Assembly (NCBI GenBank): GCA_964615315.1 | Contig: CAZTMZ010000003.1 | Location: 45,565-69,564 of the forward strand | Reading direction: 5' to 3' | Origin: an uncultured Eubacteriales bacterium | GTDB lineage: Bacteria > Bacillota > Clostridia > Oscillospirales > Acutalibacteraceae | DNA length: 24,000 nucleotides | In this document: positions 1,568-18,905 of the stretch, piece by piece | How the letters are laid out: each line of letters opens with the position of its first letter | Numbering within the stretch: the stretch's first letter is position 1 | Notes under the pieces: model-generated | The model's database searches: none | Told to the model about the DNA's origin: nothing | What the model saw: only the letters and a program-made list of their open reading frames with translations | Translations under genes and position numbers: made by a program

Positions 1568-3367
1568 ATGGCTACTATTAAGAAAAATTATACTCCTTCT
1601 TCTTTGCCTGTTGCGTTTAGCAGAGGTGAACCAATCCCGATTGACAAAAGTCTGGTTTGGTATTCTTTTGAAGAACTAAAAACGTATGCAGAAAGCGGAG
1701 CGACTGCGTATGTGGGCCAAGTTCTTTCTTTTGTAGATGAAGAAAGTGGTACTGCAACTGTTTATGTTATCGCGGACGAAGCTGGCACTCTTGAGAAGGT
1801 TGGAACCTCTCCTGTTGGCGACGAGTCTACTATTACCGTGGCTGAAAATGGCACTGTAAGCCTTTATGGTATTGATGGCATTGAAGTTGAAAGCAAGACT
1901 TATCAACCTTTACTGGTGAATGGTATTCTTACTTGGGTTGAACCTAGTGCAACTACCGTTGAAGGTCTAGCTACCGAAATCGAAGGCCTAAAGAGTAGAG
2001 TTGGCGCGGTAGAAACGTCTGTTACTGCAATCAATAACAAGATTGGTGAAGTTGCTGAAGATAAGACTGTTGTTGAAATGATCGCTGACGCCAAGGCTGA
2101 GGCAACTTATGATGATACTACCCTAGTTGGTCGTGTAGATACTCTTGAAGGAAAGGCTCATGAACATAGTAACAAAGATGTTTTGGATGGTATTACTTCT
2201 GATAAAGTTTCTGCATGGGATAAGGCGGAGCAGAATGCTGTTGATCGTGTACTAGGTTATCTTGCGGAAGACGAGATCAATACCGATTTTGATACCCTAA
2301 AGGAAGTTGCAGAGTGGATCGAATCTGATACAACTGCAAGCGCGGAACTAGTTATTCGTGTTTCTAATATTGAAAACGACTATCTAAAGGGTGCGGACAA
2401 AACTGCACTACAGGGCGAGATTGACGCTCTTGAGGCGTTTATTGGCGAACTACCCGAAGATGCGGTGTCTGAAACTGTAGTTGGCTATATCAAGGAAGTT
2501 GTAGGCGCTCTACAGATTGGTGATTATGCCAAGGCTTCTGATTTGACTGCTCTTGCCAATCGTGTTACTGCGCTCGAAAATGTTGGTGCAGAAAAGAACG
2601 TTATTGCAACTGTAGACGAAGGTCAATTTGCTATTGATGACTCCAGAAATCTAACTCTGCTAGATATTGCTATGGGTAAGGTTACTGGCCTGTCTGATGC
2701 GCTAGCTGGCAAAGTTGCTACTGAAGAAGGTAAGTCTCTGATTCAGGATACCTTAATTGAAAAACTAGAAGGCATTGCTACTGGCGCTCAGGTCAATGTT
2801 ATTAATAGCGTTGACACTGCACAGTTTGCGATTGACGAAGATAAGAAACTAACACTGCTTGACGTTGCAATGGGCAAGGTTACTGGTCTATCTGAAGCTC
2901 TTGCTACTAAAGTAGACAAGGTTGAAGGTTCTCGCCTAATTACTTCTGATGAAGCTTCCAAACTTGAAAGCCTAGTCCTGTCCGAAGACGGTAGCGTTGA
3001 AATCAGTGGTGAAGTTAATGCTTCTAACGTTAAGGAGCTTGGTTCTTGGATTACCACTAATAGAGGCACTGTTCTTGGTCTGTTGAGTGCTGAGAACGAA
3101 ACCAAACTAGATGGCGTCGAAGCTGGTGCTCAAGTTAACAAGATTGAGTCTGTAAAGGTCGGCGGCACACTGCTTGACATTACTGAAAAGAGTGTTAATA
3201 TTCCTGTGGCTACGGGCACTCTACTTGGTGTTGTTATGAGTTCTGCTGCGGAAAATAAAGTTGCAGTTGCAGAAGATGGCACTATGGAAGTTAATAGTGT
3301 TAACATCAATAAGCTAACGCAGAACGAGGGCGATTTCTTAGTTCTTGACGGCGGAGCTTCTGCCTAA
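1568..3367 (+). CDS. Tail-fibre protein (coiled-coil, with internal repeats)
   Basis: RBS aaggagg lies 8 nt upstream of the ATG. The protein has two copies of a roughly 60-aa repeat (QFAIDDSRNLTLLDIAMGKVTGLSDALAGKV / QFAIDEDKKLTLLDVAMGKVTGLSEALATKV). It shares the motifs HEHSNKDVLDGITSDKVSAWD and ALQIGDYAKASDLTAL with the next gene. Confidence 0.8.
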   Translation: MATIKKNYTPSSLPVAFSRGEPIPIDKSLVWYSFEELKTYAESGATAYVGQVLSFVDEESGTATVYVIADEAGTLEKVGTSPVGDESTITVAENGTVSLYGIDGIEVESKTYQPLLVNGILTWVEPSATTVEGLATEIEGLKSRVGAVETSVTAINNKIGEVAEDKTVVEMIADAKAEATYDDTTLVGRVDTLEGKAHEHSNKDVLDGITSDKVSAWDKAEQNAVDRVLGYLAEDEINTDFDTLKEVAEWIESDTTASAELVIRVSNIENDYLKGADKTALQGEIDALEAFIGELPEDAVSETVVGYIKEVVGALQIGDYAKASDLTALANRVTALENVGAEKNVIATVDEGQFAIDDSRNLTLLDIAMGKVTGLSDALAGKVATEEGKSLIQDTLIEKLEGIATGAQVNVINSVDTAQFAIDEDKKLTLLDVAMGKVTGLSEALATKVDKVEGSRLITSDEASKLESLVLSEDGSVEISGEVNASNVKELGSWITTNRGTVLGLLSAENETKLDGVEAGAQVNKIESVKVGGTLLDITEKSVNIPVATGTLLGVVMSSAAENKVAVAEDGTMEVNSVNINKLTQNEGDFLVLDGGASA

Positions 3368-3422
3368 TATAGATAATACAATATGAATGGAAAAATATAT
3401 TTTTTAAAGGAGAAATGTAATT

Positions 3423-5177
3423 ATGGCTACTACTAAAACTTTAAATACCAAAATTGCTCTACGTTATGATTCTTATGAAAATTGGATTGCAAATGACCCC
3501 GTACTTATGGCGGGTGAGTTGGCACTAGCTGCTGTTTCTGTTAAGCAGAATGACGTAGTAAACTTTGTGCCCTCTGTTCTTGTTAAGGCCGGTAATGGTA
3601 CTAGTAAGTATTCCGAGTTGGATTATATTTTTGCGAAGGCTGCTGATGTTTTAGAGGCTTGTAAGTCTGAATCTGGTCTAACTGCTTTTGTCAACAACGT
3701 CATTAACAATGCCGGTATTGCTACCGATGAGGCTCTGAATGCACTCAAGACTCGTGTCGCCGCTGCCGAGGGCGACATCGATACGCTAGAAGGTCTAGTT
3801 GGCGATACCGCTGTAGCTACTCAGATTTCTGACGCTATTGCCAAGCTAGATCTTGCCAATACCTATGACGCCAAGGGTTCCGCTGCCGCTGTTCAGTCTT
3901 CTCTAGACTCTTATAAGGCTTCTAACAATGCTGTTATTGCGGCCATCAAGGACGGCGCTGTTCTCGACAGCTTTAAGGACGTTGAAGATCAGCTTGCTAC
4001 TAAGGAAGCCAGTGGTGCTGCAGCTCAGGCTCTAGCCGATGCTAAGGAATATGCTGACGGTAAGGATGCTGCTATTGCCGCTGCTAAGAAGGCTGGCGAC
4101 GACGCTCAGGCCGATGTTGACGCTCTAGAGGCTGCTGTTGGTACTGTTCCTACTGGTAAAACCGTCGTTCAGATGATTTCCGAGGCTCAGACTGCCGCTA
4201 CTTATGATGATACCAAAGTTAAGGCCGACATCGCTCAGAATGCTTCTGATATTGATACCCTAGAGGCTCTTGTTGGTGATACTGCGGTTGCGACTCAGAT
4301 TAGTACTTCTGTAAATGCCGCCAAGACTGAGCTCAAGGGCGGTTCTTCTGATACTGCCTCTTCTGCTACTATTGCTGGCGCAAAGAAGTACGCTGACAGT
4401 CTAAATACTGCTATGGATGCTCGTATAGATGCTATTGAAGCGGCTGTTGGTGAGGGTGGCTCTGTTGGTGCTCAGATTGACGAAAAGATCGCGGCTCTAG
4501 ACGTAGCGGACACTGCTGTTGCTGGTCAGTATGTATCTGCTGTTTCTGAGACTGATGGTAAGATCACCGTCACTCGTGCAGCTCTGCCAGATTACACTGA
4601 GACCTATGCTGCCAAGAAGCATACTCATGCCGTTGCTGACGTAACTGGCCTGCAGACTGAGCTTGACAAGGTTTCTACCCTAATTGGTAGTGACGCTGGT
4701 AAGTCTGCTCGTACTATTGCAAACGAGGAACTTGCCGCGCAGCTAATTCCTGATGGTGCTAAGGAATCTCTAGATACCCTGCAGGAAATTGCACAGTGGA
4801 TTCAGGATCACCCCGACGACGCGGCTGCTATGAATTCTGCTATCGAAGCTCTGCAGACTAAGGTTGGCGATACTTCTGTGTCTGCTCAGATTACTGCGGC
4901 TATCGACGCGCTGAAGATCGGAGATTATGCGAAGGCCGCAGATCTTACTGCTGCTATTGCACGTATTGCTACTCTTGAAGGCGATTCTCATACTCACAGC
5001 AACAAGACCGTACTTGATGGCATTACATCTGATAAGGTAAATACTTGGGATGCATCTGTACAGACCGTTACTGGCGGCACTGGCTTGAAGGCAGCTAAGT
5101 CTGGCACTGGTGTTACCGTTGACTTTGATGATAGTGTCACTTTTGTGTTTGATTGCGGCGATAGTACTAATGCCTAA
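3423..5177 (+). CDS. Tail-fibre protein (Ala-rich coiled-coil), paralogous to 1568..3367
   Basis: RBS aaaggaga is present. The N-terminus is typical of fibres (YDSYENWIANDPVLMAGELALA...KAGNGTSKYSELDY). Shared blocks: HTHSNKTVLDGITSDKVNTWD, LDTLQEIAQWIQD, ALKIGDYAKAADLTAA. Confidence 0.8.
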   Translation: MATTKTLNTKIALRYDSYENWIANDPVLMAGELALAAVSVKQNDVVNFVPSVLVKAGNGTSKYSELDYIFAKAADVLEACKSESGLTAFVNNVINNAGIATDEALNALKTRVAAAEGDIDTLEGLVGDTAVATQISDAIAKLDLANTYDAKGSAAAVQSSLDSYKASNNAVIAAIKDGAVLDSFKDVEDQLATKEASGAAAQALADAKEYADGKDAAIAAAKKAGDDAQADVDALEAAVGTVPTGKTVVQMISEAQTAATYDDTKVKADIAQNASDIDTLEALVGDTAVATQISTSVNAAKTELKGGSSDTASSATIAGAKKYADSLNTAMDARIDAIEAAVGEGGSVGAQIDEKIAALDVADTAVAGQYVSAVSETDGKITVTRAALPDYTETYAAKKHTHAVADVTGLQTELDKVSTLIGSDAGKSARTIANEELAAQLIPDGAKESLDTLQEIAQWIQDHPDDAAAMNSAIEALQTKVGDTSVSAQITAAIDALKIGDYAKAADLTAAIARIATLEGDSHTHSNKTVLDGITSDKVNTWDASVQTVTGGTGLKAAKSGTGVTVDFDDSVTFVFDCGDSTNA

Positions 5178-5254: not shown

Positions 5255-5887
5255 ATGAGCTGTTATGTAGAAAAAGTAATAAAAATTGCAAAGGCCGAAA
5301 TCGGCTATTTAGAAAAGGCAAGCAATAGTAATCTTGATAATAAGACTGCAAATGCAGGAGATAAAAATTACACTAAGTACGCTAGGGATTTGGACAGCAT
5401 TTCTGGTTTCTACAACGGAAAGAAACAAGGGTATCCTTGGTGTGATGTGTGGTTTGACTGGCTGTTTGTTCAAGCATACGGCGTTGAAAGTGCAAAAAGA
5501 TTACTTTGTCAGCCTAACAAGTCGCTAGGTGCTGGTTGTCAGTACTCTATGAATTACTATAAATCAAAAGGACAGCTCTATACTACTCCTAAAATTGGAG
5601 ACCAAATATTTTTTAAAAATAATTCTGATGAGATTGTTCACACGGGGTTTGTGTACGATGTGGATAAAACATATGTATATACAATCGAGGGCAATACGTC
5701 TTCTGCCAGTGGCGTAGTCGCTAACGGTGGCGGTGTATTTGCTAAAAAATATAAATTAACATATGAACGTATCGCGTGTTATGGTAGGCCAGCTTATGAC
5801 ACGGTTGAAAATAAAAATAATACAGCCGCCCATGTGGCAAATGGAGGGACTTGTACTGTGAATCTTAATGTGTTGAAAAAAGGAAAT
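5255..5887 (+). CDS. Endolysin exon 1: CHAP/NlpC-P60-type catalytic domain
   Basis: Catalytic Cys context GYPWCDVW, His context EIVHTGFVY, and TIEGNTS. The exon ends ...VLKKGN on U5887. The TAA at 5888-5890 is the first triplet of the intron. Confidence 0.85.
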
Positions 5888-6345
5888 TAACTAATGCAAT
5901 TTCTAAGCCTAGGTGTAACCGGGCGATTGCATTAGTATAGTTTCCGTATACAGAAATGTGTATGAAAAATTACTCACTGAATTGCTGGAATCCCCTAAAG
6001 CCTATGACGCTACAACGCGAGTCGTAAGACCGAACGTGAATGCAGTGAAAACAGAAAAAAGACATAGGATGATATATGGTTAAATCCTAAGTATCGTAAC
6101 AATGGGCAATCAGCAGCCAAGCTCCCAATTATTGACAACACAATATGAATGTGCTATAATAGTTGTGGAAAAGGTTCAACGACTATCCCGCAAGGGAGTA
6201 GGACACAAGCGATTGGTGTCCGAAGTGGTGAGCACCTAAGTCTCTTATGAGATATGGCGAAGATATAGTCTGTGCTCTACTGAAAGGTAGAGGCGCGAAA
6301 GCGCAGCGAGGCGTAGCGAGCCGATAGGAAAACAACCTTTTCTTA
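5888..6345 (+). ncRNA. Group I intron ribozyme core (IA2-like, with P7.1/P7.2)
   Basis: P1: ggaaaU(5882-5887) pairs with Gtttcc(5940-5945). P1 carries a perfect 10-bp extension hairpin, ctaatgcaat(5891-5900)/attgcattag(5926-5935). P2: gtatac(5946-5951)/gtgtat(5958-5963). Core elements: P aattgctggaa (5980-5990), Q caatcagcagc (6107-6117), R gttcaacgactat (6174-6186), S aagatatagtct (6260-6271). P7 is gactat/atagtc. GNRA-capped hairpins follow: ccc-gcaa-ggg and gcgc-gaaa-gcgc. From memory, the 3' core closely resembles the phage T4 td intron (AACGACTATCCC...GAGTAGG...GAGATATAGTCTGCTC). Confidence 0.85.
6132..6160 (+). promoter_or_regulatory. Perfect sigma-A/sigma-70 consensus promoter inside the intron (P6 region), facing tnpB
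   Basis: TTGACA (6132-6137), a 17-nt spacer (6138-6154), then TATAAT (6155-6160). A TG at 6152-6153 gives an extended -10 (TGcTATAAT). The homologous ORF-less intron has only a short hairpin at this position. Confidence 0.6.
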
Positions 6346-6369
6346 TCATGAATGAGAGGAGGTGCAACG

Positions 6370-7509
6370 ATGATTAAATCTTTTATAGTAAGGTTATACC
6401 TAACGAGAATACAAGAGGAGCTGGCGTGGAAGCACGTTGGCGCTTGCAGGTTCATTTGGAATTATATGCTTGACTACCAGCAGAGGTTATACGAATCAGA
6501 AAAGAAGCATCTACCTGCCTTTAGTATGATAAAACTTCTAACTCCGTTGAAGAATGACGGAGAGCATGGCTGGCTGTACGACGTATCGAACTCTTCCTTG
6601 CAAACAATCTGCCGCGATTTGGACGGAGCCTATCAGTGTTTCTTTAAGAAGGCTGCCGGTTTTCCGAAGTTCAAGTCGCGTAAGAAGAGTAAATCGAATT
6701 TTCCTGTATGCTGCAATAGATTCTACTTTGCAGACGAGAACTTCGTACAGATACAGAAGCTCGGCAAGGTTCGTTTCAAAACGGACTTTGAGCTTCCGAT
6801 TGGACGCGAGCATAAGTTCCTGAACCCCAGAATTTCCTACGTTAATGGGAAATGGCTACTGTCTTTTAGCATGGAGTGCGAGAACCAAGCGCCTGTATTG
6901 ACAGACAAGCCCATGGGTATAGATTTAGGTATTAAGGATTTAGCAGTGGCAGAATTTGACGGAAGGCCCATTGTCTTTCATAACATCAACAAGTCGAAGC
7001 GTATGCGGCAGCTCAAGCAGAGGCAGAAGCACTTGCAGAGAAGTATCTCCCGCAAGTACGAAGCGAATCGCAAGGGCAACCAGTATGTGAAGACGAAAAA
7101 CATTGAAAGGCAGGAGGAACAACTCCGCAAGCTCTATTCTCGAATCACGAACATCCGAACAAACTACATCCACCAAACCACACACGTTTTGGTTTCTCTC
7201 CTGCCTTGTCGAGTCGTCATGGAAGACTTAAACGTACAAAGCATGATGAAGAACCGACATCTGAGCAAGGCAATTCAGGAGCAGGGGTTCTATGAATTCA
7301 TCCGCCAAATGCAGTACAAGTGCGAGTGGAACGGTATCGAGTTCGTTCAGGTTTACAGGTTTTATCCGAGCAGCAAGACATGTTCCAAATGCGGCAACGT
7401 CAAGCGGAACCTGAAGCTGTCGGACAGAACGTATCATTGTGATTCGTGCGGAGCAGTAATTGACCGAGATTACAACGCTGCCATTAACCTTAGCAGATAC
7501 GTAGTCTAA
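6370..7509 (+). CDS. tnpB: TnpB RNA-guided DNA endonuclease (379 aa)
   Basis: RBS aggagg lies 7 nt before ATG 6370; the track start at 6352 is unlikely. The N-terminus MIKSFIVRLYLTRIQEE..CRFIWNYML is typical of TnpB. RuvC-I GIDLGIKD, RuvC-II VVMEDLNV, zinc ribbon CSKCG...CDSCG, and RuvC-III IDRDYNAAINL are all intact. Confidence 0.92.
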   Translation: MIKSFIVRLYLTRIQEELAWKHVGACRFIWNYMLDYQQRLYESEKKHLPAFSMIKLLTPLKNDGEHGWLYDVSNSSLQTICRDLDGAYQCFFKKAAGFPKFKSRKKSKSNFPVCCNRFYFADENFVQIQKLGKVRFKTDFELPIGREHKFLNPRISYVNGKWLLSFSMECENQAPVLTDKPMGIDLGIKDLAVAEFDGRPIVFHNINKSKRMRQLKQRQKHLQRSISRKYEANRKGNQYVKTKNIERQEEQLRKLYSRITNIRTNYIHQTTHVLVSLLPCRVVMEDLNVQSMMKNRHLSKAIQEQGFYEFIRQMQYKCEWNGIEFVQVYRFYPSSKTCSKCGNVKRNLKLSDRTYHCDSCGAVIDRDYNAAINLSRYVV

Positions 7510-7633
7510 TTGAAGAGACTATGGTCTTGAGGTGTTGTTGCACCTTTAAGCTGTGGAGAGCCATACAAACTTGAGTAGTTACGACGAAAGAGGGCTTGAT
7601 GAAGCAGTAAGTTTAGTTTGCTAAACACAACAG
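7510..7633 (+). ncRNA. IStron 3' structured region: candidate omega-RNA scaffold ending at the 3' splice site
   Basis: Hairpins: agac/gtct, aggtg/cacct and gtttag-tttg-ctaaac. They lie just before ...acaacaG7633. The position relative to the tnpB stop matches the TnpB omega-RNA paradigm. The scaffold probably starts inside the tnpB 3' end. Confidence 0.55.
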
Positions 7634-7819
7634 AAAAATAGTTCCGTAAAAGCATTGCAAATATTGTTAATTGGAAATGGCTATTCTTGTGGCTCTTATG
7701 GCGCAGACGGAGATTTCGGTACGGGAACGTATAATGCGGTTGTAAAATTTCAAAAAGCAAAAAAGATTGGCGCAGATGGAATTGTTGGAGCACAAACATG
7801 GGAGAAGCTATTAAAGTAA
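7634..7819 (+). CDS. Endolysin exon 2: PG_binding_1 cell-wall-binding domain
   Basis: Translation: KNSSVKALQILLIGNGYSCGSYGADGDFGTGTYNAVVKFQKAKKIGADGIVGAQTWEKLLK*. This fits the PG_binding_1 pattern (V..LQ.LL...GY.....DG.FG..T..AV..FQ......DG.VG..T...L). It has no start codon or RBS of its own. The frame is closed upstream at TAA 7622-7624. Confidence 0.85.
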   Translation, partial: KNSSVKALQILLIGNGYSCGSYGADGDFGTGTYNAVVKFQKAKKIGADGIVGAQTWEKLLK

Positions 7820-8853: not shown

Positions 8854-10275
8854 ATGGGTAAGAAGTTAACTAAAGAAGAATTTATTAAAAGGGTTTATGA
8901 AAAAAATGAGCATGTAAGAAATGGAGAACTTGAGATTCGTGGAGAGTTCGTTGGGACAAAGGAACCAATAGAATGTTTTTGTACAATCCACCATGTTTTA
9001 TGGAACCCTAGACCGGACGATTTGTGGAAAGGAATTGGGTGTAGACAATGTGGGAGTGTAAAAACAGCGGACAAAAGGCGTGTAGATGCGGACACAATTA
9101 ATAGACGATTAGAACAAATAAATAATGGCGTTAAAATGATTGGTAAATGCTTCGGCGTTAGAGCGGAAACTGAGTTTCAATGTAGTTTGAATCATACATG
9201 GAGAGATCGACCTATTGATATTTTGAACGGCGTAGGATGCCCATATTGTAGCGGACATCGTGTTTGGGTTGGATTTAATGATTTATGGACAACACGTCCT
9301 GATGTTGCGAAGTTGTTATTGAATTCTAACGATGGCTATAAATATACATACGGTTCTAATAAAAAATTAGAATTTATTTGTCCAATTTGTGGGTCTATAA
9401 TAATAAAGTCCGCAAAAGAAGTCTGTCAAAATGGATTAGTTTGTCAACTTTGCTCTGATGGTATTTCATATCCAAATAAGCTTGGCAGGTTGTTATTAAC
9501 ACAGCTCAATGTAGAGAATATAAGATATGAGTGGAGCCCGGATTGGATCCAATCTTATTCTTACGATAATTATTTTGAATATTGTGGAAAAGCATATATT
9601 TTAGAGTTTGACGGTGGACTTGGGCATGGTAAAAAGAAATATAAATCAAATGAGCGCGATGTTATTGGCAAAGAAAGAGATATTTATAAAGATCGTTTGG
9701 CAGCAGATCATAATATAAAAGTTATAAGAGTCGATTGCGATTACACTGGAAAATGTAATGATCGTTTTATGTATATAAAAAATAATATTTTACAAAGTGA
9801 ATTGTGTAGCATTTTTGATTTGTCTTGTGTTGATTGGGAATATTGTGATTGTAATGCGCAAAAAACATTGATAAAACAAGTTGCGGATTTATACAATCAA
9901 GGTTTAAGCGTATCAGAAATACAAAAGATTGTAGGTTATTATATTAATACTATCCGTAAATGGTTAACTACGGCATCTAAATATAATTTATGTAATTATA
10001 ATAGAAAAGAGTCTAAAAGAAGAACAACTGATTCTATATACCGTTATATTAATCAATATTCTACAAATGGAGAATTTGTGAGAACATATAAATGTGTAGC
10101 TGAAGCCAGTGAAATTACTGGAGTTGATGATTCTTCGATTTATGGATGTTGTAAACATTATTCTGGGCATAAAACCGCAGGTGGATTTTTATGGTTTTAT
10201 GCTACAGATCTATATCAACCAGATAAATCAAAGATTATTGAATTAGCAATACAAAATGAATGTAAGGAGGTGTAA
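8854..10275 (+). CDS. Free-standing protein resembling a homing endonuclease: Zn-ribbon repeats + Vsr/PD-(D/E)XK-like core + HTH/NUMOD1-like DNA-binding C-terminus
   Basis: RBS ggagg is present. There are three Cys/His ribbon modules (CTIHH..CRQCG; CSLNH..CPYCSG; CPICG..CQLCS). The core motif YILEFDGGLGHG...ERD..KD is typical of Vsr/DUF559-type nucleases. An HTH follows (GLSVSEIQKIVGYYINTIRKWL). The C-terminus reads INQYSTNGEFVRTYKCVAEASEITGVDDSSIYGCCKH..KTAGGFLWFY, typical of phage homing-endonuclease DNA-binding repeats. The gene looks visibly AT-rich. Confidence 0.55.
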   Translation: MGKKLTKEEFIKRVYEKNEHVRNGELEIRGEFVGTKEPIECFCTIHHVLWNPRPDDLWKGIGCRQCGSVKTADKRRVDADTINRRLEQINNGVKMIGKCFGVRAETEFQCSLNHTWRDRPIDILNGVGCPYCSGHRVWVGFNDLWTTRPDVAKLLLNSNDGYKYTYGSNKKLEFICPICGSIIIKSAKEVCQNGLVCQLCSDGISYPNKLGRLLLTQLNVENIRYEWSPDWIQSYSYDNYFEYCGKAYILEFDGGLGHGKKKYKSNERDVIGKERDIYKDRLAADHNIKVIRVDCDYTGKCNDRFMYIKNNILQSELCSIFDLSCVDWEYCDCNAQKTLIKQVADLYNQGLSVSEIQKIVGYYINTIRKWLTTASKYNLCNYNRKESKRRTTDSIYRYINQYSTNGEFVRTYKCVAEASEITGVDDSSIYGCCKHYSGHKTAGGFLWFYATDLYQPDKSKIIELAIQNECKEV

Positions 10276-10278
10276 CCG

Positions 10279-12250
10279 ATGGAAATTATAAACGCTTTTA
10301 AAACTGTAACTGAACAAATTAAATCTTGGGTTGACGAGAATAAAGTGCAAAAAGTAAGCGGGAAAGGACTTTCTACAAATGATTATACCAATATAGATCG
10401 CCAAAAAGTAGAAGAAATGCCAAATGACTTAATGATTCTTAATGGAAAATTATATCTTGCACAGGATGGAACCCCAATTGACAGTTCTGCGGTACAGCTT
10501 CCTGAAGGTGGTGGCGGAGGCGGTGGTTCGAGTGCTACGATTACATTAAAGAATTTGCTAGATTCGTCCATCATAACATCTGCCGTTGGAAATTCAGTAG
10601 TTTTAAAATTCAGTTTTGCATCGTCTGAGGCAGATAGTGGTATGGCTTATATTTATGTCGGCGGTGTTCTGAAGGGTACGGCAGCTATAATTGCCGGAAG
10701 CAATACGTTGGATATTTCAGAATATGTTGGAGAAGGTTCCAATGAAGTTAAATTAACATGTATGGACGTGTATAGCAATAGTAAAAGCTTGGCGTATACT
10801 GTCAACATGGTTTCGTTGAGAGTGACATCTACTTTTGATGATTCTCAAGTTTATTCGGGCGATATTAGTGTTCGTTATATTGTTTATGGTGCAGTAGAAA
10901 AAACTATGCATTTTGTGGTCGATGACACAGATACCACTGTAACAGTAAGTGAAACTGGAAAACAACGAACACAGGTTTTACCAGCAATGTCGCATGGAAC
11001 ACATTTATTAAAAATTTATGCAACGGCTACAATTAATGGTGTTGAAGTTAAAAGCAACGAATTATTGTTTGATATATTGTGTGCCGTGGAAGGTGCGACT
11101 ACTCCGATGATTTCTTCTGCCTGTAACGTTATATCTGTAACCCAAGGAGAATTGATTAATATTCCATTTGTGGTTTATGATCCTTCTAATATGGAAACTG
11201 AAATTACTCTTACTATATCGCAGAATAACGAAATATACTTCACTTCTATGAGAACCGTAGATCGTACAAAACAAACTTGGAGTATAAGAAATTATCCTGT
11301 TGGCGAAGTAACTTTTACTATTACATATGGTGCTATTAGTAAAAGTCATATGATAACTGTTGCAGAGAATAATATTGATGTTTCTGTAAAAACAACGGAT
11401 TTAGAATTCCAACTTAGGGCGGCAGGTAAATCCAACGAAGATACGGATCGCGACACTTGGACTAGCGGCGACGTAACTACTATGTTCGAATACTTAAACT
11501 GGGAATCTACTGGTTGGGTTGCGGACGATGACGGTGATGTTGCTTTAAGGTTGTCTGGTGATGCAAAGGCAACAATTAATTTTATGCCGTTTAAATCAGA
11601 TGCTCGTCAGACAGGTAAAACAATTGAAATGGAATTTGCCATTCGTGATGTTAATAATCGCGATGCCGTTGCGATTTCTTGCTTGAATGGCGGTATTGGT
11701 TTTACTGTTACTGCAGATACGTTTGTAATGACAAGCGAACAGACGAAAATTAGTTGCAATTATACTGATGAAGAAAAGATAAGAATTGCTGTTGTAATTG
11801 AGCCACGTAGTGAATACCGTATGATGAGCGTTTATTTGAATGGTGTTTTATCTGGTGTTGAACAGTACCCCGAAACAGATAACTTTCAACAAACGTCTCC
11901 TACGAATATCGTTATTGGTTCTGAATATTGTTCTGTTGACTTATATACCATCCGTTCTTATGATGTAGCATTAACCGCAGATGAAATTAAAGACAATTAT
12001 ATTGCCGATATTACTGACATTAGTGAGAAAGCAGCGTTATATTCGGACAATGATATCTATGATGCGTTTGGTAATTTAAGCTTTTCTGCACTGAAGGATA
12101 AAATACCTGTGTTGGTTATTACGGGCACTTTGCCAACATATAAGGGAGATAAGAGAAAAGTAACTATTGCGTATACAGATCCACTAAATCCCAGTCTGGA
12201 TTTTGAGGATAGCGCAACAATTGATGTACAAGGCACATCAAGTCAGTATT
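10279..12250 (+). CDS. Giant tail/receptor-binding protein, exon 1
   Basis: RBS aaggagg is present. Fibre motif KVSGKGLSTNDYTNIDRQKV, a Gly7 linker and beta-rich domains. The exon ends ...IDVQGTSSQY + t at U12250. The track ORF runs on 35 nt into the intron, to TGA at 12283-12285. Confidence 0.8.
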
Positions 12251-12620
12251 CGAAATTTGGATACCGTATTGAGAAATCAGTATGAAAAAATACTCGTTTA
12301 ATTGCTGGAACACCCTAAAGACAAATAAACTACAACGTAAAGATGAAATATGCTTAAGCGTGAATGTTATGAAAATAGAAAAAAATATTTGTATGAGAGC
12401 GAGGTTAAATCCCCTGCTCTTTTTTAATGGGCAATCAGCAGCGAAGCCGTGAATAACGGAACGTTCAACGACTATTCTGAAAGGAAGTAGGCTGTAAGCG
12501 ATTGACAGTCGAAATGGCGAGGACCAGAAATGGTTAAGATATAGTCTATACTCAATGGAAACATTGAGAAGGAGAAATCCTTAGCACAGGAGTAGCGTCC
12601 TATGTTTAATACAATAGATG
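12251..12620 (+). ncRNA. ORF-less group I intron (370 nt), homologous to the IStron ribozyme
   Basis: P1: gtatUc(12246-12251)/ggatac(12259-12264), with U12250-G12260 at the splice site. P2: gtattg(12266-12271)/cagtat(12278-12283). Core elements: P aattgctggaa (12300-12310), Q caatcagcagc (12432-12442), R gttcaacgactat (12463-12475), S aagatatagtc (12536-12546). GAAA-capped P9 hairpins: ctcaatg-gaaa-cattgag and aagga-gaaa-tcctt. The terminal G12620 is the only G that both lies after the in-frame TAG (12593-12595) and restores the frame. Confidence 0.85.
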
Positions 12621-15600
12621 TTCGTAAAAACTGGAAAATTAAAACTTCAGAATATCATACATTAGATTTAGATCAAGTTCCTACAAAAATATTTTGCTGG
12701 AAGGCTGACTATGCTGAGGCGACTGGTAGCCACAACACGAGTACGGCTAATTATGCTCATATATTATATGGAGATGCTAAAACTCCGCCGCAGGAAGCCG
12801 ATTCTCGTGTAAGAACTACTGTTTATGGAAGACCAAGTGTAATTTTTCATAAAGCAGATAGTAGTTCGGACCCCGTATTTTACGGAAAGGCAAATGCAAA
12901 TATAGATAAAGGAGCACTTGAATGCTTTGGTTTTACTGAAGATTATTCAGATGCCCAGTGTGTAGAATTTTGCAATAACGTTTCAGAGGCATGTTTATTC
13001 CACAAAGAGATATCAGATGATTGGTCTGATGACTTTGAATTTCGTCAGCCCGATGGATACACGGATATCTCTGACTTCAAAATTGTACACGATTGGACAG
13101 TTAGCACATGGCAAGATGGGGCAACTGGAACTGCATTGAATGGATCGTATACAGGCATTGATGGTACTGTTTATACTAATGATACTGCGGCATATAGATT
13201 AGCAAAATTCAAGAAAGAATTTACAGATTATTATAATTTGGATTTTTGTTTAGTTTATTATGTGTTGACGTTTGTGCTAATGTGCGTAGACCAACGTGCG
13301 AAGAATATGTTTTTAACAACTTGGGACAAGGTTCATTGGGAGCCGTGGTTTTATGATAATGATACAATTTTAGGCATTAATAACGAAGGTAGATTGGTCT
13401 TCAGTCCTTTTTTGGAGGATGACGATCAGCTTGATGGAGCAAATGTTTTTAATGGAGCCACAAGTGCCCTTTGGGTGAATTTTAGAGAATCTTTCCCTAA
13501 TGAGATTCAGGCTTTGTATGCTTCTTGGCGTAGCGAAGGATTGTTAAGTTATGATCAGATAATTGAATATTTTATAACTCGCCAAACTGACAAATGGTCT
13601 ATTTCAGTTTACAGTGAAGATATAGATTTTAAGTATGTCTCTTTGCTGAGAGATGATGATGATGGTACTTACTTATATCAAGTAAGAGGTACTGGTGAAG
13701 AACATTTAAGATACTTTACTAAAGCTAGACTTAATTACTTAGACTCTAAGTGGTGCTGCGGTGATTATCCAAGTGATTACGTTTCGTTGCGTATTTATAC
13801 TCCAATGGATGAAAATAATAATCCACTAACTAATTTGCCAGTAGCTGCCAATCCAGATATTACGATAACACCTTATGAAAACACCTATGCAGGCGTTCAA
13901 TTTGGCGCAGGTAGTAACATTAATCAATATAAGGCGTATCAAAATGTTCCAATTACGCTTAAGTGGACAATGAATGGTTCTCCTAATGACCTTGAGACTT
14001 CGGTATTCCCGGCTTCTCAGATTAGTTCTTTGGGTGATTTGTCTCCTTTGTATTGCGGCACGATTAATGTTAGCAAAGCAGAGAAGTTAACTGAATTAAT
14101 TGTTGGCAATCAAACAAAAGGTTATTCCAATAACAATCTAACTGAATTGGCAGTTGGTGCCAATAACCTATTACAAAAAGTAGATATTTGTAACTGTCCT
14201 AATCTAGTTAAACCATTAGCGCTTTCTAACTGTCCAAATATTCAAGAAATTTATGCAATAGGTTCTGGTATTACTGGTCTTGAGTTGCCAACCTCTGGTT
14301 ATCTAAAGAAGGTGTATTTGCCAAATACTTTAACCAACCTAACAGTAACCAACCAACAATATATTGAAGAATTCGTTCTCGAAGGTTATGACAATTTGAC
14401 TACTCTTCGTATTGAAGATACTGTTAATATTCCTGTCGAAGACATAATGCTTAATGCGCCGAATTTGAATCGTATTCGTCTTATTGACGTTCAATGGGAA
14501 GCAGAGTCTGAGGCAGCGCTTGTTCAAACAATTGAAAAATTTAAGTCTTGTTTGGGTTTGGATGCTAACGGCAATAATACTGAGAACGCCATTGTTACCG
14601 GTAAAGTGCATGTCGCAGAGAAAGTCTCCAATGAAGTTTTCGGTGATGTTTATAATAGTTTCCCAGATCTTGTTATAGATGACGGCAGTGAAGAAATCTA
14701 TATTCTTAACTACAAAGACCGTGATGGTAAAATATTATATTCTACTAGAGTCGCAGAAGGGGCGAATGCGATAGATCCGATTGCACAGGGTTATATTGAG
14801 ACCCCAGACCCAATTATAACAGACACATATAGATATGAATTCGTCGCTTGGAGTACATTGCCAACCAACATTCAGAGGCATTATGTAATTATTGCGCAAT
14901 ACCACACTAAGTTTGCTATTAAATTTTATAATGAAGAAACATTATATTATACTCAGTGGTCCGTACAAGGCGACCCAGCTATCGACCCTGTTGTATCCGG
15001 CGCAATCACAGCTCCAACCAAGTCTGGCACGTCCGATATAAGCTATAAGTTCTCTGGTTGGGACAACCTGCCAACGAACGTTCAATCCACAGTTAACGTA
15101 TATGCTCAATACGATACCTATTGGGCTGTAAGATTCTGGAACGACAGTGTATTGTATTTAACAGAGTGGATCATCGAAGGTGGCAAACCCGTTAATCCTA
15201 GCACTTATTCCGAGGATTATACCAATCCAACTCGTACAAGTACGGCGCAATATGACTATCACTTCTCTAGTTGGGATGGTGACTTTGATACCGAAGTAAC
15301 ATCAACAAGAGAATTCTACGCCGTATATTCCAGTACAATTCGTAGATATAATGTCTACTTCTACAATGATAACGAACTGCTATACACCGTAGAAAATGTC
15401 CAATATGGTAGCAGTGCGTCTTATAGTGGTAGCACACCAACAAAACTCGGCGTTGAAGATCCAGACGAATACGTATTTAAGGGCTGGCTGCCTGCGCCTG
15501 AAAATATCACTGGCGAAACTAAATGTTATGCGCTGTATAAATTTACTGGTTACCTATTTGGTAAGTTAGGCAAGACTGATGATGACGATCAAGGCTATGG

Positions 15601-16321
15601 AACAGTTGATAGTCCAAACTGGGATGCGATCAATGCCTATTGGACAACTATTGCTGCTGATGTCTCATCCTACCAAAATGGTATTTTGGCAGAAGATGAT
15701 TTTACTGCAAAATATCAAATTGGTGGCCGAATGATTGTTCCAATTAACCTTTCGGATGGTACATCTACTATGGCAGATGTTGAAATTATTGCACACAACC
15801 ATGATAATCTAGCGGACGGCTCTGGTAAGGCGGCTTTAACATTCTTCTGTAAAGATCTTCCGCAGGTTCAGCGTGCTATGAATGAGTCTACTGTACTTAC
15901 TGGTTATAAAGATAGTATAATGCGTACTTTTGTCAATGAAGAATTGTTTGGCGTTCTTCCCAATGAACTAACGTTGGTAATCAAACCCGTAAAGAAAATT
16001 TCTGATGGTGGTGCGCAAAATCAGACACTAGTAACTACGACGGATTATTGTTGGATTGCGTCATATGATGAAGTTGGTTTTACTTCTGGTGGCTCAAATA
16101 TTTCTGGGCAGGGAGAGTTGTATGATGAAATATTTTCTAACAATAACAGTCGTAAAAAGTATATAACTGATAGCACCGATACTGGTGGATGGTGGCTGCG
16201 CACGTCAGTTCGTTCTACAAATTTAAGCAGCACTATGTTTTACAGAGTTCAGAAGTCGGGTGCGGCATATACGGATATTCAGACGAATCAATTTTATGTT
16301 GCATTTGGTTTTTGTATCTAA
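12621..16321 (+). CDS. Giant tail/receptor-binding protein, exon 2: CotH-like domain, LRR region, four Listeria/Bacteroides-type repeats, C-terminal WWLR domain
   Basis: The splice junction reads GTSSQY-F-RKNWKIK, which fits a CotH-type motif. A CotH-like core is present (DQRAKNMFLTTWDKVHWEPWFYDNDTILG). LRRs span about 14040-14480 (LTELIVGN..LTELAVGAN..CPNLVKPLALSNCPNIQEIY). Repeats span 14699-15538. The C-terminus contains GGWWLRTS. The spliced product is 1890 aa. Confidence 0.8.
14699..15538 (+). repeat. Four tandem coding repeats of about 70 aa (Flg_new / Listeria-Bacteroides repeat-like)
   Basis: The units start YILNYKD, FAIKFYN, WAVRFWN and YNVYFYN. Each ends in Y.F.(A/G/S)W....V......YA.Y (EFVAWSTLP..IIAQY; YKFSGWDNLP..VYAQY; YHFSSWDGDF..FYAVY; YVFKGWLPAP..CYALY). 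Confidence 0.7.
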
Positions 16322-16418: not shown

Positions 16419-17021
16419 ATGACTGGTTTTGAAGAATTTTTAACTCTATTTGGAGGCATTACGGTTTCTCAAATTGTCGTTTTTGTGTTTGCGGTTATCT
16501 TTTTATTCTCTGTCTATAAAGAGATTAAAAAGTACGTCAACGTAAAAATTAAAGAACAGCAAACAAAAGCAGATGAAGAAAAGAATAACAAAAAGAAACT
16601 TGAAGAAGCGTGGGTCGCAACACAAAAGTATCCAGAGTATCGTAAAAAAAGTTTAGAAATACAGGAACTTCTTGAGGGCGAAATCCAAGAAGTAAAAAAC
16701 ACAGAAGAGACGGTAACAGAAGAATTAAAGAAACTGTCTTTACGTCTTGAAAAGATGGAGGAAGACACGAAACGCCGTGAGCGTAATCGTCTCAGAGATC
16801 TGCTGCTGAATCATTATCGTCATTATACAAACAAAGAACTAAATCCGTCACAATCATGGACGAGCATGGAAGCGGAGACATTCTGGGCGTTATTTAGCGA
16901 TTATGAGGATGCAGGTGGAGATGGTTACATGCACACTACGGTTCAGCCAGAAATGGAACGTTTACTAGTTGTGAACGTAGGTGAACTACCACAGACCGTA
17001 ACGGCCTGTGGCTTCCATTAA
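16419..17021 (+). CDS. Hypothetical membrane-anchored coiled-coil protein; its 3' end runs into the IS left end
   Basis: RBS gggagg is present. N-terminal TM segment ITVSQIVVFVFAVIFLFSV, followed by a charged coiled-coil. The last roughly 18 codons (from about 16966) and the stop codon lie inside the IS200/IS605 left-end hairpin structure. Confidence 0.6.
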   Translation: MTGFEEFLTLFGGITVSQIVVFVFAVIFLFSVYKEIKKYVNVKIKEQQTKADEEKNNKKKLEEAWVATQKYPEYRKKSLEIQELLEGEIQEVKNTEETVTEELKKLSLRLEKMEEDTKRRERNRLRDLLLNHYRHYTNKELNPSQSWTSMEAETFWALFSDYEDAGGDGYMHTTVQPEMERLLVVNVGELPQTVTACGFH

Positions 17022-17031
17022 ATAGTTCACC
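16980..17031 (+). repeat. IS left-end (LE) subterminal hairpin
   Basis: Outer 9-bp stem: ggtgaacta(16980-16988)/tagttcacc(17023-17031). Inner hairpin: ccacag(16989-16994)...taa...ctgtgg(17006-17011), with an inner GC stem ccg/cgg. It has the same architecture and the same CCACA/TGTGG core as the RE hairpin. Confidence 0.7.
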
Positions 17032-17268
17032 AGACTAAGTATTCAGAAACGAATACTACGATGATTACATTATGACACCCTTGGTTGACGCAACAGACCA
17101 CTGCTCTGTCGTATATCTTTAAGTTGGGTTGGAATAAGCAAAGCCCTGTGAGATATACATGTAAGTGTATTCATCATTGTCGAGTTGAGGACGGAACAAT
17201 TGTATGGTAACAGTACAATGTAGTACGCATTACCTGCCATTAGGCAGAGTATTTATAAGGAGAGGCTT
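17032..17268 (+). ncRNA. Candidate IscB omega-RNA scaffold (may extend 5' through the LE to about 16966)
   Basis: A long non-coding leader lies immediately 5' of iscB, which is the canonical omega-RNA location. Hairpins: agtattc-agaaac-gaatact (17038-17057), attgta-tggtaacag-tacaat, and ctgcc-atta-ggcag just before the RBS. No ORF is present. Confidence 0.5.
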
Positions 17269-18543
17269 ATGGTTTATGTAATTTCACAAGATAACAAACC
17301 ACTAATGCCTTGTAGTAATGCGATAGCAAGATTGTTATTAAAACAAGATAAGGCAAAAGTTAAGAAACGCAAGCCATTTACAATTAAATTGACTTATGAA
17401 ACAACAAATTATACACAAGAACTAACTTTAGGTGTTGATACTGGAAGTGGAACAATTGGCACTGCCGTTAGTAAAGATAATGGAGACATTGTTTACATGT
17501 CGGAGGTTATTGTCAGAAATGATATTACTGATAAGATGACACAAAGAGCAAAGTATCGTAGAAACAGACGAAATCGTAAAACTCGATATAGAAAGGCAAG
17601 ATGGTTAAATCGTGCCAATTCTATTAAAAATGACAGATTCAGTCCTACAATGCAAAGTAAACTTCATAGTCATGTAAAGGAAATAGAGTATATTAAATCC
17701 ATTCTTCCGATTACAAAAATGGTATTTGAAACTGGTCAGTTTGACACTCACCTTATGAAGAATCCATGTCTTGCAAATCCTAATGTAAGACATTGGGGAT
17801 ATCAAAAAGGTACAAATTATGGATTTGAAAACACAAAAACGATGGTTCTTAATCGAGACAATTATACTTGTCAACATTGCAAAGGCAAACACAAAGACAG
17901 TAAATTAGAAGTTCATCATATCGTATTTCGTAGTCAAGGTGGTTCAGATGAAGAAAGCAATTTAATCACACTTTGTCATACTTGTCATAAGAATTTACAT
18001 GACAGAAAAATTAAATTAAATCTTAAAGGCAAAACGAAAGGCACACTTAAATATGCCACACAAATGAATTCTATTAGAAAACAACTTTTCAGATTATATC
18101 CTGATGCGATTGAAACATTTGGATATGTAACAAAAACAAATCGTTTACAGTTAGGTGTAGATAAAGAACACTATTATGATGCTTGTACTATTGCGGCACA
18201 AGGGAATAGCTTTACTGTGAAAAGCAATCTCTATAAGAAAAAGTCTATTCCTGATGGTGATTTTCAGAAAACAAAAGGCATTCGTTCCGAGCAACCTATT
18301 ACAACTGGAAAGATTTGTGGATTCAGAAAGTTTGATAAGGTTCGCTACTTTGGAAATGATTATTTTATTAAAGGAAGAATGTCAATTGGATATGCAATTC
18401 TTATGGATATAGATGGTAACAAAATTGATTTTTCAGCAATGCCTAAAGGTTACAAAACACCAAAGATGGTAAATCTAAAAAGATTGGAGGCTCGGTCAAC
18501 ATGGATGATTACAACCGTGGTGGTCACTCCAAATACAGCATGA
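17269..18543 (+). CDS. iscB: IscB RNA-guided nuclease (424 aa; Cas9-ancestor type, RuvC with inserted HNH)
   Basis: PLMP motif at residues 11-14 (QDNKPLMPCS). RuvC-I LGVDTGSGTIG (D57). Arg-rich bridge helix KYRRNRRNRKTRYRKARW. RuvC-II MVFETGQFD. HNH CQHCKGK..LEVHHIVFRSQGGSDEESNLITLCHTCHKNLH. RuvC-III EHYYDACTIA. A C-terminal domain of about 100 aa follows. Confidence 0.92.
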   Translation: MVYVISQDNKPLMPCSNAIARLLLKQDKAKVKKRKPFTIKLTYETTNYTQELTLGVDTGSGTIGTAVSKDNGDIVYMSEVIVRNDITDKMTQRAKYRRNRRNRKTRYRKARWLNRANSIKNDRFSPTMQSKLHSHVKEIEYIKSILPITKMVFETGQFDTHLMKNPCLANPNVRHWGYQKGTNYGFENTKTMVLNRDNYTCQHCKGKHKDSKLEVHHIVFRSQGGSDEESNLITLCHTCHKNLHDRKIKLNLKGKTKGTLKYATQMNSIRKQLFRLYPDAIETFGYVTKTNRLQLGVDKEHYYDACTIAAQGNSFTVKSNLYKKKSIPDGDFQKTKGIRSEQPITTGKICGFRKFDKVRYFGNDYFIKGRMSIGYAILMDIDGNKIDFSAMPKGYKTPKMVNLKRLEARSTWMITTVVVTPNTA

Positions 18544-18905
18544 AAGTGCATCTGATATTTGTAACCAAATATCGCAAGAAAATATTCAAATCAGATAAGC
18601 GAGCAGATGATGTCAAACAGTCTTTGTATGACACAGTTAAGAAATATGGCTACAAAATCATACAAATGGAAACTAACAAAGACCATGTACATATATTACT
18701 TGAGTATAGTCCAAAGGTGTCTGTTGCAGACATTGTAAAACAACTCAAGCAGTATAGTACATACCAGATGTGGAAATATCATGAAGAATATCTATCCAAA
18801 CAGTATTGGAAACACAAAATACTTTGGTTTGACGGATATTTTGCTTGCAGTATAGGGCAAGTTTCTCAAGAAATTATTGAGAAGTGTATTCAAAACCAAG
18901 GTTAA
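18501..18905 (+). CDS. tnpA: IS200/IS605 Y1 (HUH) transposase TnpA, with Cys at the catalytic Tyr position
   Basis: RBS ggagg lies 10 nt before the ATG. The gene overlaps the iscB 3' end by 43 nt. Motifs: VHLIFVTKYRKK, and HUH in NKDHVHILLEY. The C-terminal helix ...SQEIIEKCIQNQG aligns to IS608 TnpA ...LNVVKQYIENQ, where Y127 is the nucleophile. Here the codon is TGT. Confidence 0.9.
   Translation: MDDYNRGGHSKYSMKVHLIFVTKYRKKIFKSDKRADDVKQSLYDTVKKYGYKIIQMETNKDHVHILLEYSPKVSVADIVKQLKQYSTYQMWKYHEEYLSKQYWKHKILWFDGYFACSIGQVSQEIIEKCIQNQG

Follow-up and report, generated by a model that had tools for sequence, protein, structure and literature searches.

How can the transcript of a single phage gene serve both as the precursor of a spliced messenger RNA (mRNA) and as the guide of a nuclease? 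This question is raised by the endolysin gene in a stretch of 24,000 nucleotides (nt) from an uncultured Eubacteriales bacterium (GenBank assembly GCA_964615315.1, contig CAZTMZ010000003.1, positions 45,565 to 69,564), hereafter called the window. The window is phage-like, and its endolysin gene is interrupted by an element of 1746 base pairs (bp) that holds a group I intron, a tnpB gene and an omegaRNA. In this report, we conclude that this is probably, with a probability that we put at roughly 0.78, a mobile element of the IStron type, whose unspliced RNA would guide TnpB to the intron-less form of the junction and whose splicing would sever that guide from its scaffold. Coordinates are those of the window, and the element, its parts and the exons of its host gene lie on the + strand.

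The boundaries of the element can be given to the base. An open reading frame (ORF) at 5255-5890 encodes the N-terminal 211 residues of the endolysin, and homologues of this product carry the CHAP domain PF05257. Exon 1, the CHAP-type amidase part (211 codons), occupies 5255..5887; directly after its last bases, ...GGAAAT (5882-5887), stands an in-frame TAA (5888-5890). At the other end, the intron closes with ...ACAACAG, its last base being G7633, and exon 2 (7634..7819; 61 codons plus stop) starts with AAAAATAGTTCCGTAAAAGC at 7634 and keeps the frame of exon 1 into a PG_binding_1 domain (Pfam PF01471, E 9e-16). Joining 5887 to 7634 yields an endolysin of 272 amino acids (aa) with the junction …LNVLKKGN|KNSSVKALQ…, and an alignment of this protein with 13 uninterrupted CHAP+PG_binding_1 homologues, with which both exons are collinear, has no gap at the junction.

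The same join exists in nature. A 272-aa protein that clusters with the exon 1 product at 90% identity led us to L147, a contig of a closely related phage, whose 272-aa endolysin (94.8% nt identity) has no insert. At the empty site this allele reads ...GGAAAT|AAAAATAG... (with other lengths of flank, ...AAAAAAGGAAAT|AAAAATAGCTCC... and …GTGTTGAAAAAAGGAAAT|AAAAATAGCTCCGTAAAGGC…), and both GGAAAT and the 13 bases before it are the same in the window and in L147. Because the L147 allele reads straight across the junction, to the base, the inserted element is exactly 5888-7633; other boundaries giving the same join are excluded because the bases beside the two junctions differ. The predicted spliced join is thus the natural empty site, and the insertion boundaries appear to coincide with the splice sites. 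Intron-plus and intron-minus alleles both occur in phages that are ~95% identical, as is expected of a mobile intron.

The L147 comparison also bears on the start of exon 2. The first 33 nt (window 7634-7666, L147 4634-4666) hold six differences, all synonymous; the last 40 nt of exon 1 differ at only one base. This cluster has P = 0.006 in a fixed window and P = 0.42 with scan correction. It could reflect co-conversion, target escape or nothing, and we do not rely on it as a signal, the enrichment having gone after the correction.

Inside the intron boundaries lies tnpB (6370..7509; 379 aa), which has the marks of an IS607/RAGATH-18-type RNA-guided nuclease gene (Pfam HTH_OrfB_IS605, OrfB_IS605 and Cas12f1-like_TNB). 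It is the only gene-length ORF in the element and all its Pfam matches are TnpB-type; no protein-only homing endonuclease (LAGLIDADG, GIY-YIG, HNH or similar) was found there. The best solved structure for this TnpB is 8iaz (E 4e-66, full-length alignment), which we take to be ISFba1 TnpB, judging by its D371A substitution and numbering offset. The RuvC triad D185/E285/D367 and the zinc-ribbon cysteines are intact. The protein is ~49% identical to the TnpBs of the Clostridium botulinum phages c-st and D-1873, and 160 phage records of INPHARED, among them c-st, D-1873, Twort and Romulus/Remus, contain homologues of 48-59% identity. No near-identical phage was found in INPHARED, where megablast returned only ribozyme-core matches of 50-60 nt in Enterocloster phages and exon 1 had no match.

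Downstream of tnpB, starting 41 nt after its stop codon, lies a RAGATH-18 motif (7550..7610; Rfam RF03064, 61.1 bits against a gathering score of 44.9, E 4e-10, model positions 1-71 of 71). Experiments have established RAGATH-18 as the core of the RNA (“reRNA”) that guides IS607-type TnpBs, in which the guide follows directly on the 3' side of the scaffold (PMC11061315). The arrangement in the window is the one described in that study by Ren et al., namely a RAGATH-18 motif that has conserved flanks and lies directly downstream of a TnpB of the ~390-aa class (here 379 aa). Around this core we recognise four further parts of the scaffold. Stem-loop 0 (7502..7521) spans the tnpB stop codon; all 6 of its pairs are compensatory among relatives, and it is present in the single-sequence minimum-free-energy (MFE) fold. 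The nexus stem-loop (7529..7546) has a covarying stem and a loop, 7535-7540 (TTGTTG), that forms the pseudoknot strand PK-1. On the guide side of RAGATH-18 the scaffold is short (23 nt) and consists of a terminal stem-loop, GTTTAG-TTTG-CTAAAC (7611..7626), and the 3' strand of the pseudoknot, CAACAG (7628..7633; family consensus CAACGG). The terminal stem-loop covaries (one pair, for example, occurs as U-A, A-U and C-G) and differs in length among relatives. The last base of the pseudoknot strand, G7633, is at once the terminal G of the intron and the last base of the scaffold.

It is the comparison with relatives that fixes this end point. The relatives of the window TnpB that we assembled come from 42 viral and 14 genomic loci. 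In most loci scanned, intron-bearing or not, RAGATH-18 lies ~40-60 nt downstream of the tnpB match (in three it lies >1 kb downstream). When 19 non-redundant relatives with unrelated 3' flanks were aligned on their right ends, all 19 ran …stem-loop–ACA(A/G)CGG and were unrelated thereafter; conservation stops at the base aligned with G7633 (window sequence, …ACAACAG|AAAAAT).

A consensus fold of 18 sequences comprises the stop-codon stem-loop, the nexus stem-loop, the RAGATH-18 stems, the terminal stem-loop and a pseudoknot, added by us, in which the nexus loop pairs with the last six bases. With the pseudoknot included, 98.6% of cells are paired, compared with 35-45% in slid registers, and 21 of the 37 pairs show compensatory changes. 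On four of five measures none of 500 shuffles came up to the observed value, and on the fifth 3/500 did. The pseudoknot itself (7535-7540 with 7628-7633) is paired in 100% of cells across the 18 sequences and covaries at two positions; T7536/A7632 is a compensatory double change unique to the window, the other 17 sequences having C with G. The single-sequence MFE fold gives the hairpins and leaves ACAACAG free.

The L147 allele, the stop of conservation in 19 relatives and the covarying pseudoknot on the last six bases together support G7633 as the scaffold/guide junction. The scaffold thus runs from ~7502 to G7633, and its junction with the guide is the same phosphodiester bond as the 3' splice site. 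Therefore the predicted guide is the start of exon 2, from 7634 to ~7653 (AAAAATAGTTCCGTAAAAGC), which begins at the first position where the 19 relatives diverge. A 20-nt guide is optimal for ISFba1 TnpB (PMC11061315), and by analogy the guide of this element is probably of that length. An earlier note on this DNA had proposed from the letters that the right end is the terminal G7633, that the scaffold/guide junction coincides with the 3' splice site and that exon 2 begins with the guide. These proposals are supported by three independent lines: the empty site in L147, the conservation stop and the covarying pseudoknot.

At the 5' end of the element lies the group I ribozyme. Its core, from the internal guide sequence through P2 to P9 (5940..6292), matches Rfam Intron_gpI over the full model length (84 bits, E 2.5e-20). 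The last six bases of exon 1, GGAAAU in the RNA (5882..5887), can pair as the 5' strand of P1 with GUUUCC (5940-5945), with a U5887-G5940 wobble. Such a wobble marks group I 5' splice sites, for which T at -1 is a universal requirement. Between the two strands a 52-nt P1 loop insertion (5888..5939), read from the sequence, starts with the in-frame stop TAA and holds a perfect 10-bp hairpin (5891-5900 with 5926-5935). The relative L008 has a loop of equal length at the same place, and that of the L001 group is only ~10 nt. We saw no convincing pairing of the exon 2 start with bases 5' of the internal guide sequence (P10). Automated prediction of 5' splice sites in the relatives, by P1 pairing and ORF continuity, was noisy, and the sites were read by eye; L012, L016, L018, L043 and L044 were left out of these readings. 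Features of an IStron that the element shows are a group I ribozyme at its 5' end, tnpB inside the intron boundaries, insertion boundaries at the predicted splice sites, and an omegaRNA scaffold that stops at the right end, so that the flank supplies the guide.

These features suggest the following course of events. An unspliced transcript would comprise the scaffold and exon 2, the latter supplying the guide (7634 to ~7653). With that RNA, TnpB would recognise the intron-less junction, which has ...GGAAAT on the side of the transposon-adjacent motif (TAM), followed by AAAAATAGTTCC...; the TAM would be contained in the stretch AAGGAAAT at the end of exon 1. TnpB would cut within exon 2, and repair from an intron-carrying copy would copy the element in; in a co-infection this would amount to homing, and after loss of the element it would bring the element back. 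Splicing at G7633 would restore the endolysin mRNA and remove the guide, and the pseudoknot would tie up bases beside the splice site. Since splicing cuts the guide from the scaffold, one transcript could do one job or the other, not both. A balance between these two RNA fates, like homing itself, is predicted here from sequence.

Mutual exclusion on one transcript was also claimed in the earlier note; it follows from the geometry and has been demonstrated experimentally for the C. botulinum IStron (10.1101/2023.11.20.567912; PMC13521648). The earlier interpretation had been offered as a fresh inference, and in this respect it needs correction: its structural claims are supported, and what they describe is the IStron model as already published. 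Zedaveinyte et al. found for the C. botulinum IStron that the splice sites are the transposon ends, that splicing cuts the scaffold from the guide with mutually exclusive outcomes, and that the downstream strand of the pseudoknot overlaps determinants of the 3' splice site (10.1101/2023.11.20.567912). Splicing of that IStron was lost when this strand was mutated. The model has been refined in a 2026 study in Nucleic Acids Research (NAR; PMC13521648).

The identity of the TAM calls for separate treatment. The earlier note had placed it at the end of exon 1 (...GGAAAT); the position is supported by L147, the conservation stop and the pseudoknot, and from this position we infer that GGAAAT, or part of it, may be the motif. 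Positions -5 to -1 read GAAAT and contain neither AGGAG nor GAGGG, the TAMs of characterised RAGATH-18 TnpBs (PMC11061315); the TAM of the C. botulinum IStron is TGGG (10.1101/2023.11.20.567912). The protein offers a clue. In ISFba1, K83 contacts G at -1, and in ISDra2 TnpB a Q contacts T at -1 (PMC11061315); Q78 of the window TnpB (~6601-6603) aligns with these residues (ISFba1 K83, ISDra2 Q80). The ISFba1 TAM-contact residues K80, K83 and N122 correspond to S, Q and a gap in the window TnpB. Among the relatives with a readable 5' splice site, to which the following counts refer, the residue at the -1 contact is Q in five of five with exon ends in ..AT (GGAAAT, CGAAAT, TTGAAT, TATGAT and TAAGAT) and G, V or C in six of seven with ends in ..CT, L013 being the exception. 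This correlation is partly confounded by relatedness, and the same bases are also bound by the P1 pairing. Together, the Q at the -1 contact and the correlation make an unusual TAM plausible.

The window element belongs to a clade of mostly gut-phage elements whose TnpBs are at least 56% identical. Relatives at 51% TnpB identity or less lack the intron and keep RAGATH-18 and the …AACGG end. In 21 of 24 loci examined, a ribozyme core motif lies ~90-260 nt upstream of the tnpB match, and the right end of intron-bearing relatives, where it could be mapped, falls ~125-160 nt past the end of that match. The clade occupies at least 15 different 3' flanks and several 5' host sequences, and the window copy is seen at one site. 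Near-identical elements sit in different genes with their internal guide sequences re-matched (L001, GTGGCT/GGTCAC; L005, GCGGCT/GGTCGC); the clade therefore moves to new sites. One relative, L046 (3001-4133), has the same internal guide sequence as the window, GTTTCC, and a similar exon end, CGAAAT; its tnpB is apparently truncated after ~115 codons, and it may be a decaying copy.

Where the clade stands among known IStrons can be judged against the groups of Tourasse et al. (2014). Their group A (IS605-type) elements follow TTGAT-like sites and end in TCAG; those of group B (IS607-type) follow GG, end in CGG and have a 5' exon ending in G; the IStrons listed include those of the C. botulinum phages c-st and D-1873 and the ORF B-only CsISt1, which ends in CAG (PMC4227781). 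The exon ends of our relatives are ..AT or ..CT and not GG, and the window flank, ...GGAAAT with a U-G wobble, differs from the GG-ending site and G-C pair of group B. Neither the window element nor, given the distances above, the relatives checked have room for tnpA, or a remnant of it, between ribozyme and tnpB or after tnpB. The clade thus departs from group B IStrons in its U-ending 5' exon and non-GG flank, in having no room for tnpA and in the short scaffold that follows RAGATH-18.

Several observations weigh against the IStron reading of the window element. The expected TAM, GAAAT, is unlike the AGGAG, GAGGG or TGGG of characterised IS607-type TnpBs. The L147 site and the guide agree at 18 of 20 positions and differ at 9 (C in L147) and 18 (G in L147), and more distant alleles mismatch the guide at 8 and 12; ISFba1 TnpB loses its activity or is strongly impaired when a single mismatch falls within positions 1-13 (PMC11061315). 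Exact-pattern scans of IMG/VR and of JGI metagenomes found no natural empty site with a perfect match to the guide: the empty-site 20-mer and a codon-degenerate 29-mer each had 0 matches in IMG/VR, and an 18-mer had 84 in JGI metagenomes, all by chance and none in an endolysin context. The 3' terminus is CAG in the window and CGG in 19 of 19 relatives, a change that is compensated in the pseudoknot. The single-sequence fold is modestly better than shuffles (z = -1.6). Finally, the element has no TnpA that would account for the clade's reaching new sites.

Some of these points would be met by an element that is domesticated or stranded, that is, a vertically inherited, splicing intron whose TnpB and omegaRNA no longer drive homing for want of cognate empty sites or of the right TAM, and in which the coincidence of guide junction and splice site is a relic of an ancestral IStron. 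The fruitless scans for a perfectly matching empty site, the CAG terminus in place of CGG, a flank unlike the known G-rich TAMs (PMC11061315) and the existence of at least one relative (L046) with an apparently truncated tnpB all fit such a passenger. Its intact equipment does not: tnpB is full length with its catalytic triad preserved, and the G-to-A change at 7632 is matched by C-to-T at 7536, a compensation that points to continued selection on the guide-RNA fold and not on the intron alone. With intron-plus and intron-minus alleles present in phages ~95% identical as well, we regard a mere passenger as improbable. A different doubt concerns the exon end. The 5' flanks might be kept for the intron only, through P1 pairing or the choice of reverse-splicing sites, the real TAM lying elsewhere or being very relaxed; the internal guide sequence always pairs, and covaries, with the last 5-6 exon bases, and the T that never varies at -1 is simply what the U-G pair of all group I introns requires. 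Against this, the TnpB residue at the TAM -1 contact changes with the flank class, and the C. botulinum IStron uses the bases of its TAM as P1 strand as well (10.1101/2023.11.20.567912, Fig. 4 legend); the two readings are compatible. That the flanks answer to the intron's needs only is, in our view, unlikely, though it deserves some weight.

Another possibility is that the element is a classical transposon served in trans, a non-autonomous IS607/IS605-family IStron moved by a serine recombinase or by the Y1 TnpA encoded at 18501-18905, with TnpB merely restoring the copy after excision. Published work on IStrons assigns such a restoring role to TnpB (10.1101/2023.11.20.567912); moreover, relatives end in CGG like group B IStrons (PMC4227781) and lie at many different sites, and a Y1 transposase is found 11 kb downstream in the same window. 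However, TnpA_S strictly requires a GG target (10.1101/2023.11.20.567912), and the flank here does not end in GG. The dinucleotides at the junctions differ (AT versus AG; in the L001 group, CT versus GG), a misfit, as we see it, with the matched cores expected of a serine-recombinase crossover, and for the window copy we rejected such a footprint on this ground. The left-end hairpin is not conserved and is missing in the L001 group, and the intron-bearing relatives checked have no room for tnpA. As for the Y1 TnpA, it is part of an adjacent IscB/HEARO unit and is judged unlikely to be the mobiliser. We give movement by a TnpA in trans little credence, and prefer the reading of the element as an IStron whose own TnpB would carry it to intron-less alleles.

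Three markers characterise the clade: tnpA is absent from the relatives checked, the 5' splice site has the canonical U-G where IS607 IStrons have a G-C pair and a GG target, and the TAM-contact residue changes with the end of the 5' exon. It is tempting to speculate that the clade has dropped movement by transposase and become a true homing intron with an RNA-guided endonuclease that retargets itself, but we hold this extension to be tentative and rather doubtful. It would include, as a possible switch, a helix between the translation start of tnpB and the guide RNA. The Shine-Dalgarno sequence of tnpB, AGGAGGTG (6357-6364), is followed by a spacer and the ATG; the ribosome-binding region AGGTGCAACGA (6360..6370, through the A of ATG) is complementary to the nexus loop and 3' strand (7535-7545), with which it can form 11 pairs, 10 Watson-Crick and one G-U. 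The spacer, CAACGA, resembles the pseudoknot strand CAACGG. Formation of the helix would mask the Shine-Dalgarno sequence and undo both the nexus stem and the pseudoknot, which would make CAACAG and the 3' splice site available for splicing; with the helix open, TnpB could be translated and the guide RNA could fold.

The complementarity on which this idea rests is real. Of 18 intron-bearing relatives, 13 could form the helix, two of them with a matching double change; it is missing from the intron-less distant relatives. In register 89% of cells are paired, versus 29-53% when slid. The covariation is weak, consisting of one compensatory pair that is often matched by shuffles, and we regard the helix as a lead only. 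A text search of the 2023 preprint (10.1101/2023.11.20.567912) found neither “ribosome binding” nor “translation”.

Other features of the window and of L147 may be recorded here. A second group I intron, ORF-less, lies at 12239-12568 (Rfam 74.6 bits) and splits a large DUF6273-containing gene (10279-12285 and 12602-16321), in the place of which a related phage, L057, has a single gene of 1880 aa. The window also holds a second RNA-guided nuclease unit, HEARO/IscB (16981-18905), so that one phage region carries both TnpB and IscB systems. This unit consists of a HEARO/IscB omegaRNA (16981-17197; 99.5 bits), which begins inside the 3' end of the ORF 16419-17021, IscB itself (17269-18543; RRXRR and HNH domains) and the IS200-like Y1 TnpA (18501-18905). 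A 473-aa ORF at 8854-10275, with weak NUMOD1 and HTH_23 matches, is possibly a free-standing homing-endonuclease-like gene; the intron-less L147 has an ORF of equal length in the same place. Between its 584-aa gene and the endolysin, L147 has an extra 198-aa gene (3345-3941; weak Mtd_N and faint Gp10_C matches) that is missing from the window.

The general principle at work in this element has been published for IStrons (Tourasse 2014; Zedaveinyte 2023/24; NAR 2026) and for RAGATH-18 TnpBs (Ren 2024), and the window is a new phage example of it. What it offers is a clean natural case of an intron and a guide RNA that share their last nucleotide, with the conflict inherent in IStrons placed in a lytic-cycle gene of an uncultured phage. 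The intron-plus and intron-minus phages, ~95% identical, are material for a direct test of homing in co-infection. The example also indicates that neither a GG flank nor a 5' splice site other than the ordinary U-G is needed by TnpB elements of the RAGATH-18 type. If the TnpA-less clade does home by TnpB alone, it would represent a homing intron that reprograms its own target, with a bearing on the spread of TnpB through phage genomes. For the development of tools, the window TnpB would be a compact nuclease with a TAM other than AGGAG.

Among known systems, the CboIStron of C. botulinum (IS607 family, group B) is like the window element in its 5' group I intron, its IS607-type tnpB and an omegaRNA with a pseudoknot between nexus loop and 3' end. 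In both, the 3' splice site is the transposon right end and the scaffold/guide junction, splicing removes the guide, and the TAM doubles (in the window, by prediction) as the 5' strand of P1. CboIStron differs in that it encodes TnpA_S, inserts after TGGG with GG strictly required, and pairs the G of its 5' exon with C; the window element has no TnpA, a U-ending 5' exon with a U-G wobble, the flank ...GGAAAT, a CAG end and 23 nt after RAGATH-18. By description, CsISt1 of Clostridium sporogenes (PMC4227781) shares with it a group B-type organisation, ORF B (tnpB) as the only gene and a 3' end in CAG, but is inserted after AG, a flank matching its own 3' end, whereas the window flank ends in AT. 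CdISt1 of Clostridioides difficile (IS200/IS605, group A) likewise has a 5' exon ending in T, a 3' end in ...CAG (TCAG) and tnpB with omegaRNA at the 3' end. CdISt1 and its group, in contrast, have an IS605-type TnpB and omegaRNA, T-rich sites of the TTGAT type and remnants of tnpA_Y. The RAGATH-18 RNA sets the window element apart from CdISt1; Ren et al. found RAGATH-18 only with IS607 TnpBs (PMC11061315).

Two systems that are not IStrons complete the comparison. The ISFba1 TnpB-reRNA (PMC11061315) resembles the window system in a full-length TnpB alignment, in a RAGATH-18 core with flanking motifs and pseudoknots, and in a guide immediately 3' of it; unlike the window element, ISFba1 is an ordinary IS607 element without an intron, with the TAM AGGAG and a guide-side RAGATH-18 flank of ~64 nt. 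Phage group I introns with protein homing endonucleases (T4 td, I-TevI) share the presence of a self-splicing intron in a phage gene, the coexistence of intron-plus and intron-minus alleles, and an encoded nuclease that is expected to cut the empty allele. They differ in how the target would be found: targeting by the window element would use an RNA guide copied from the exon, which would be reset at each new site, and the RNA cofactor of its nuclease would compete with splicing.

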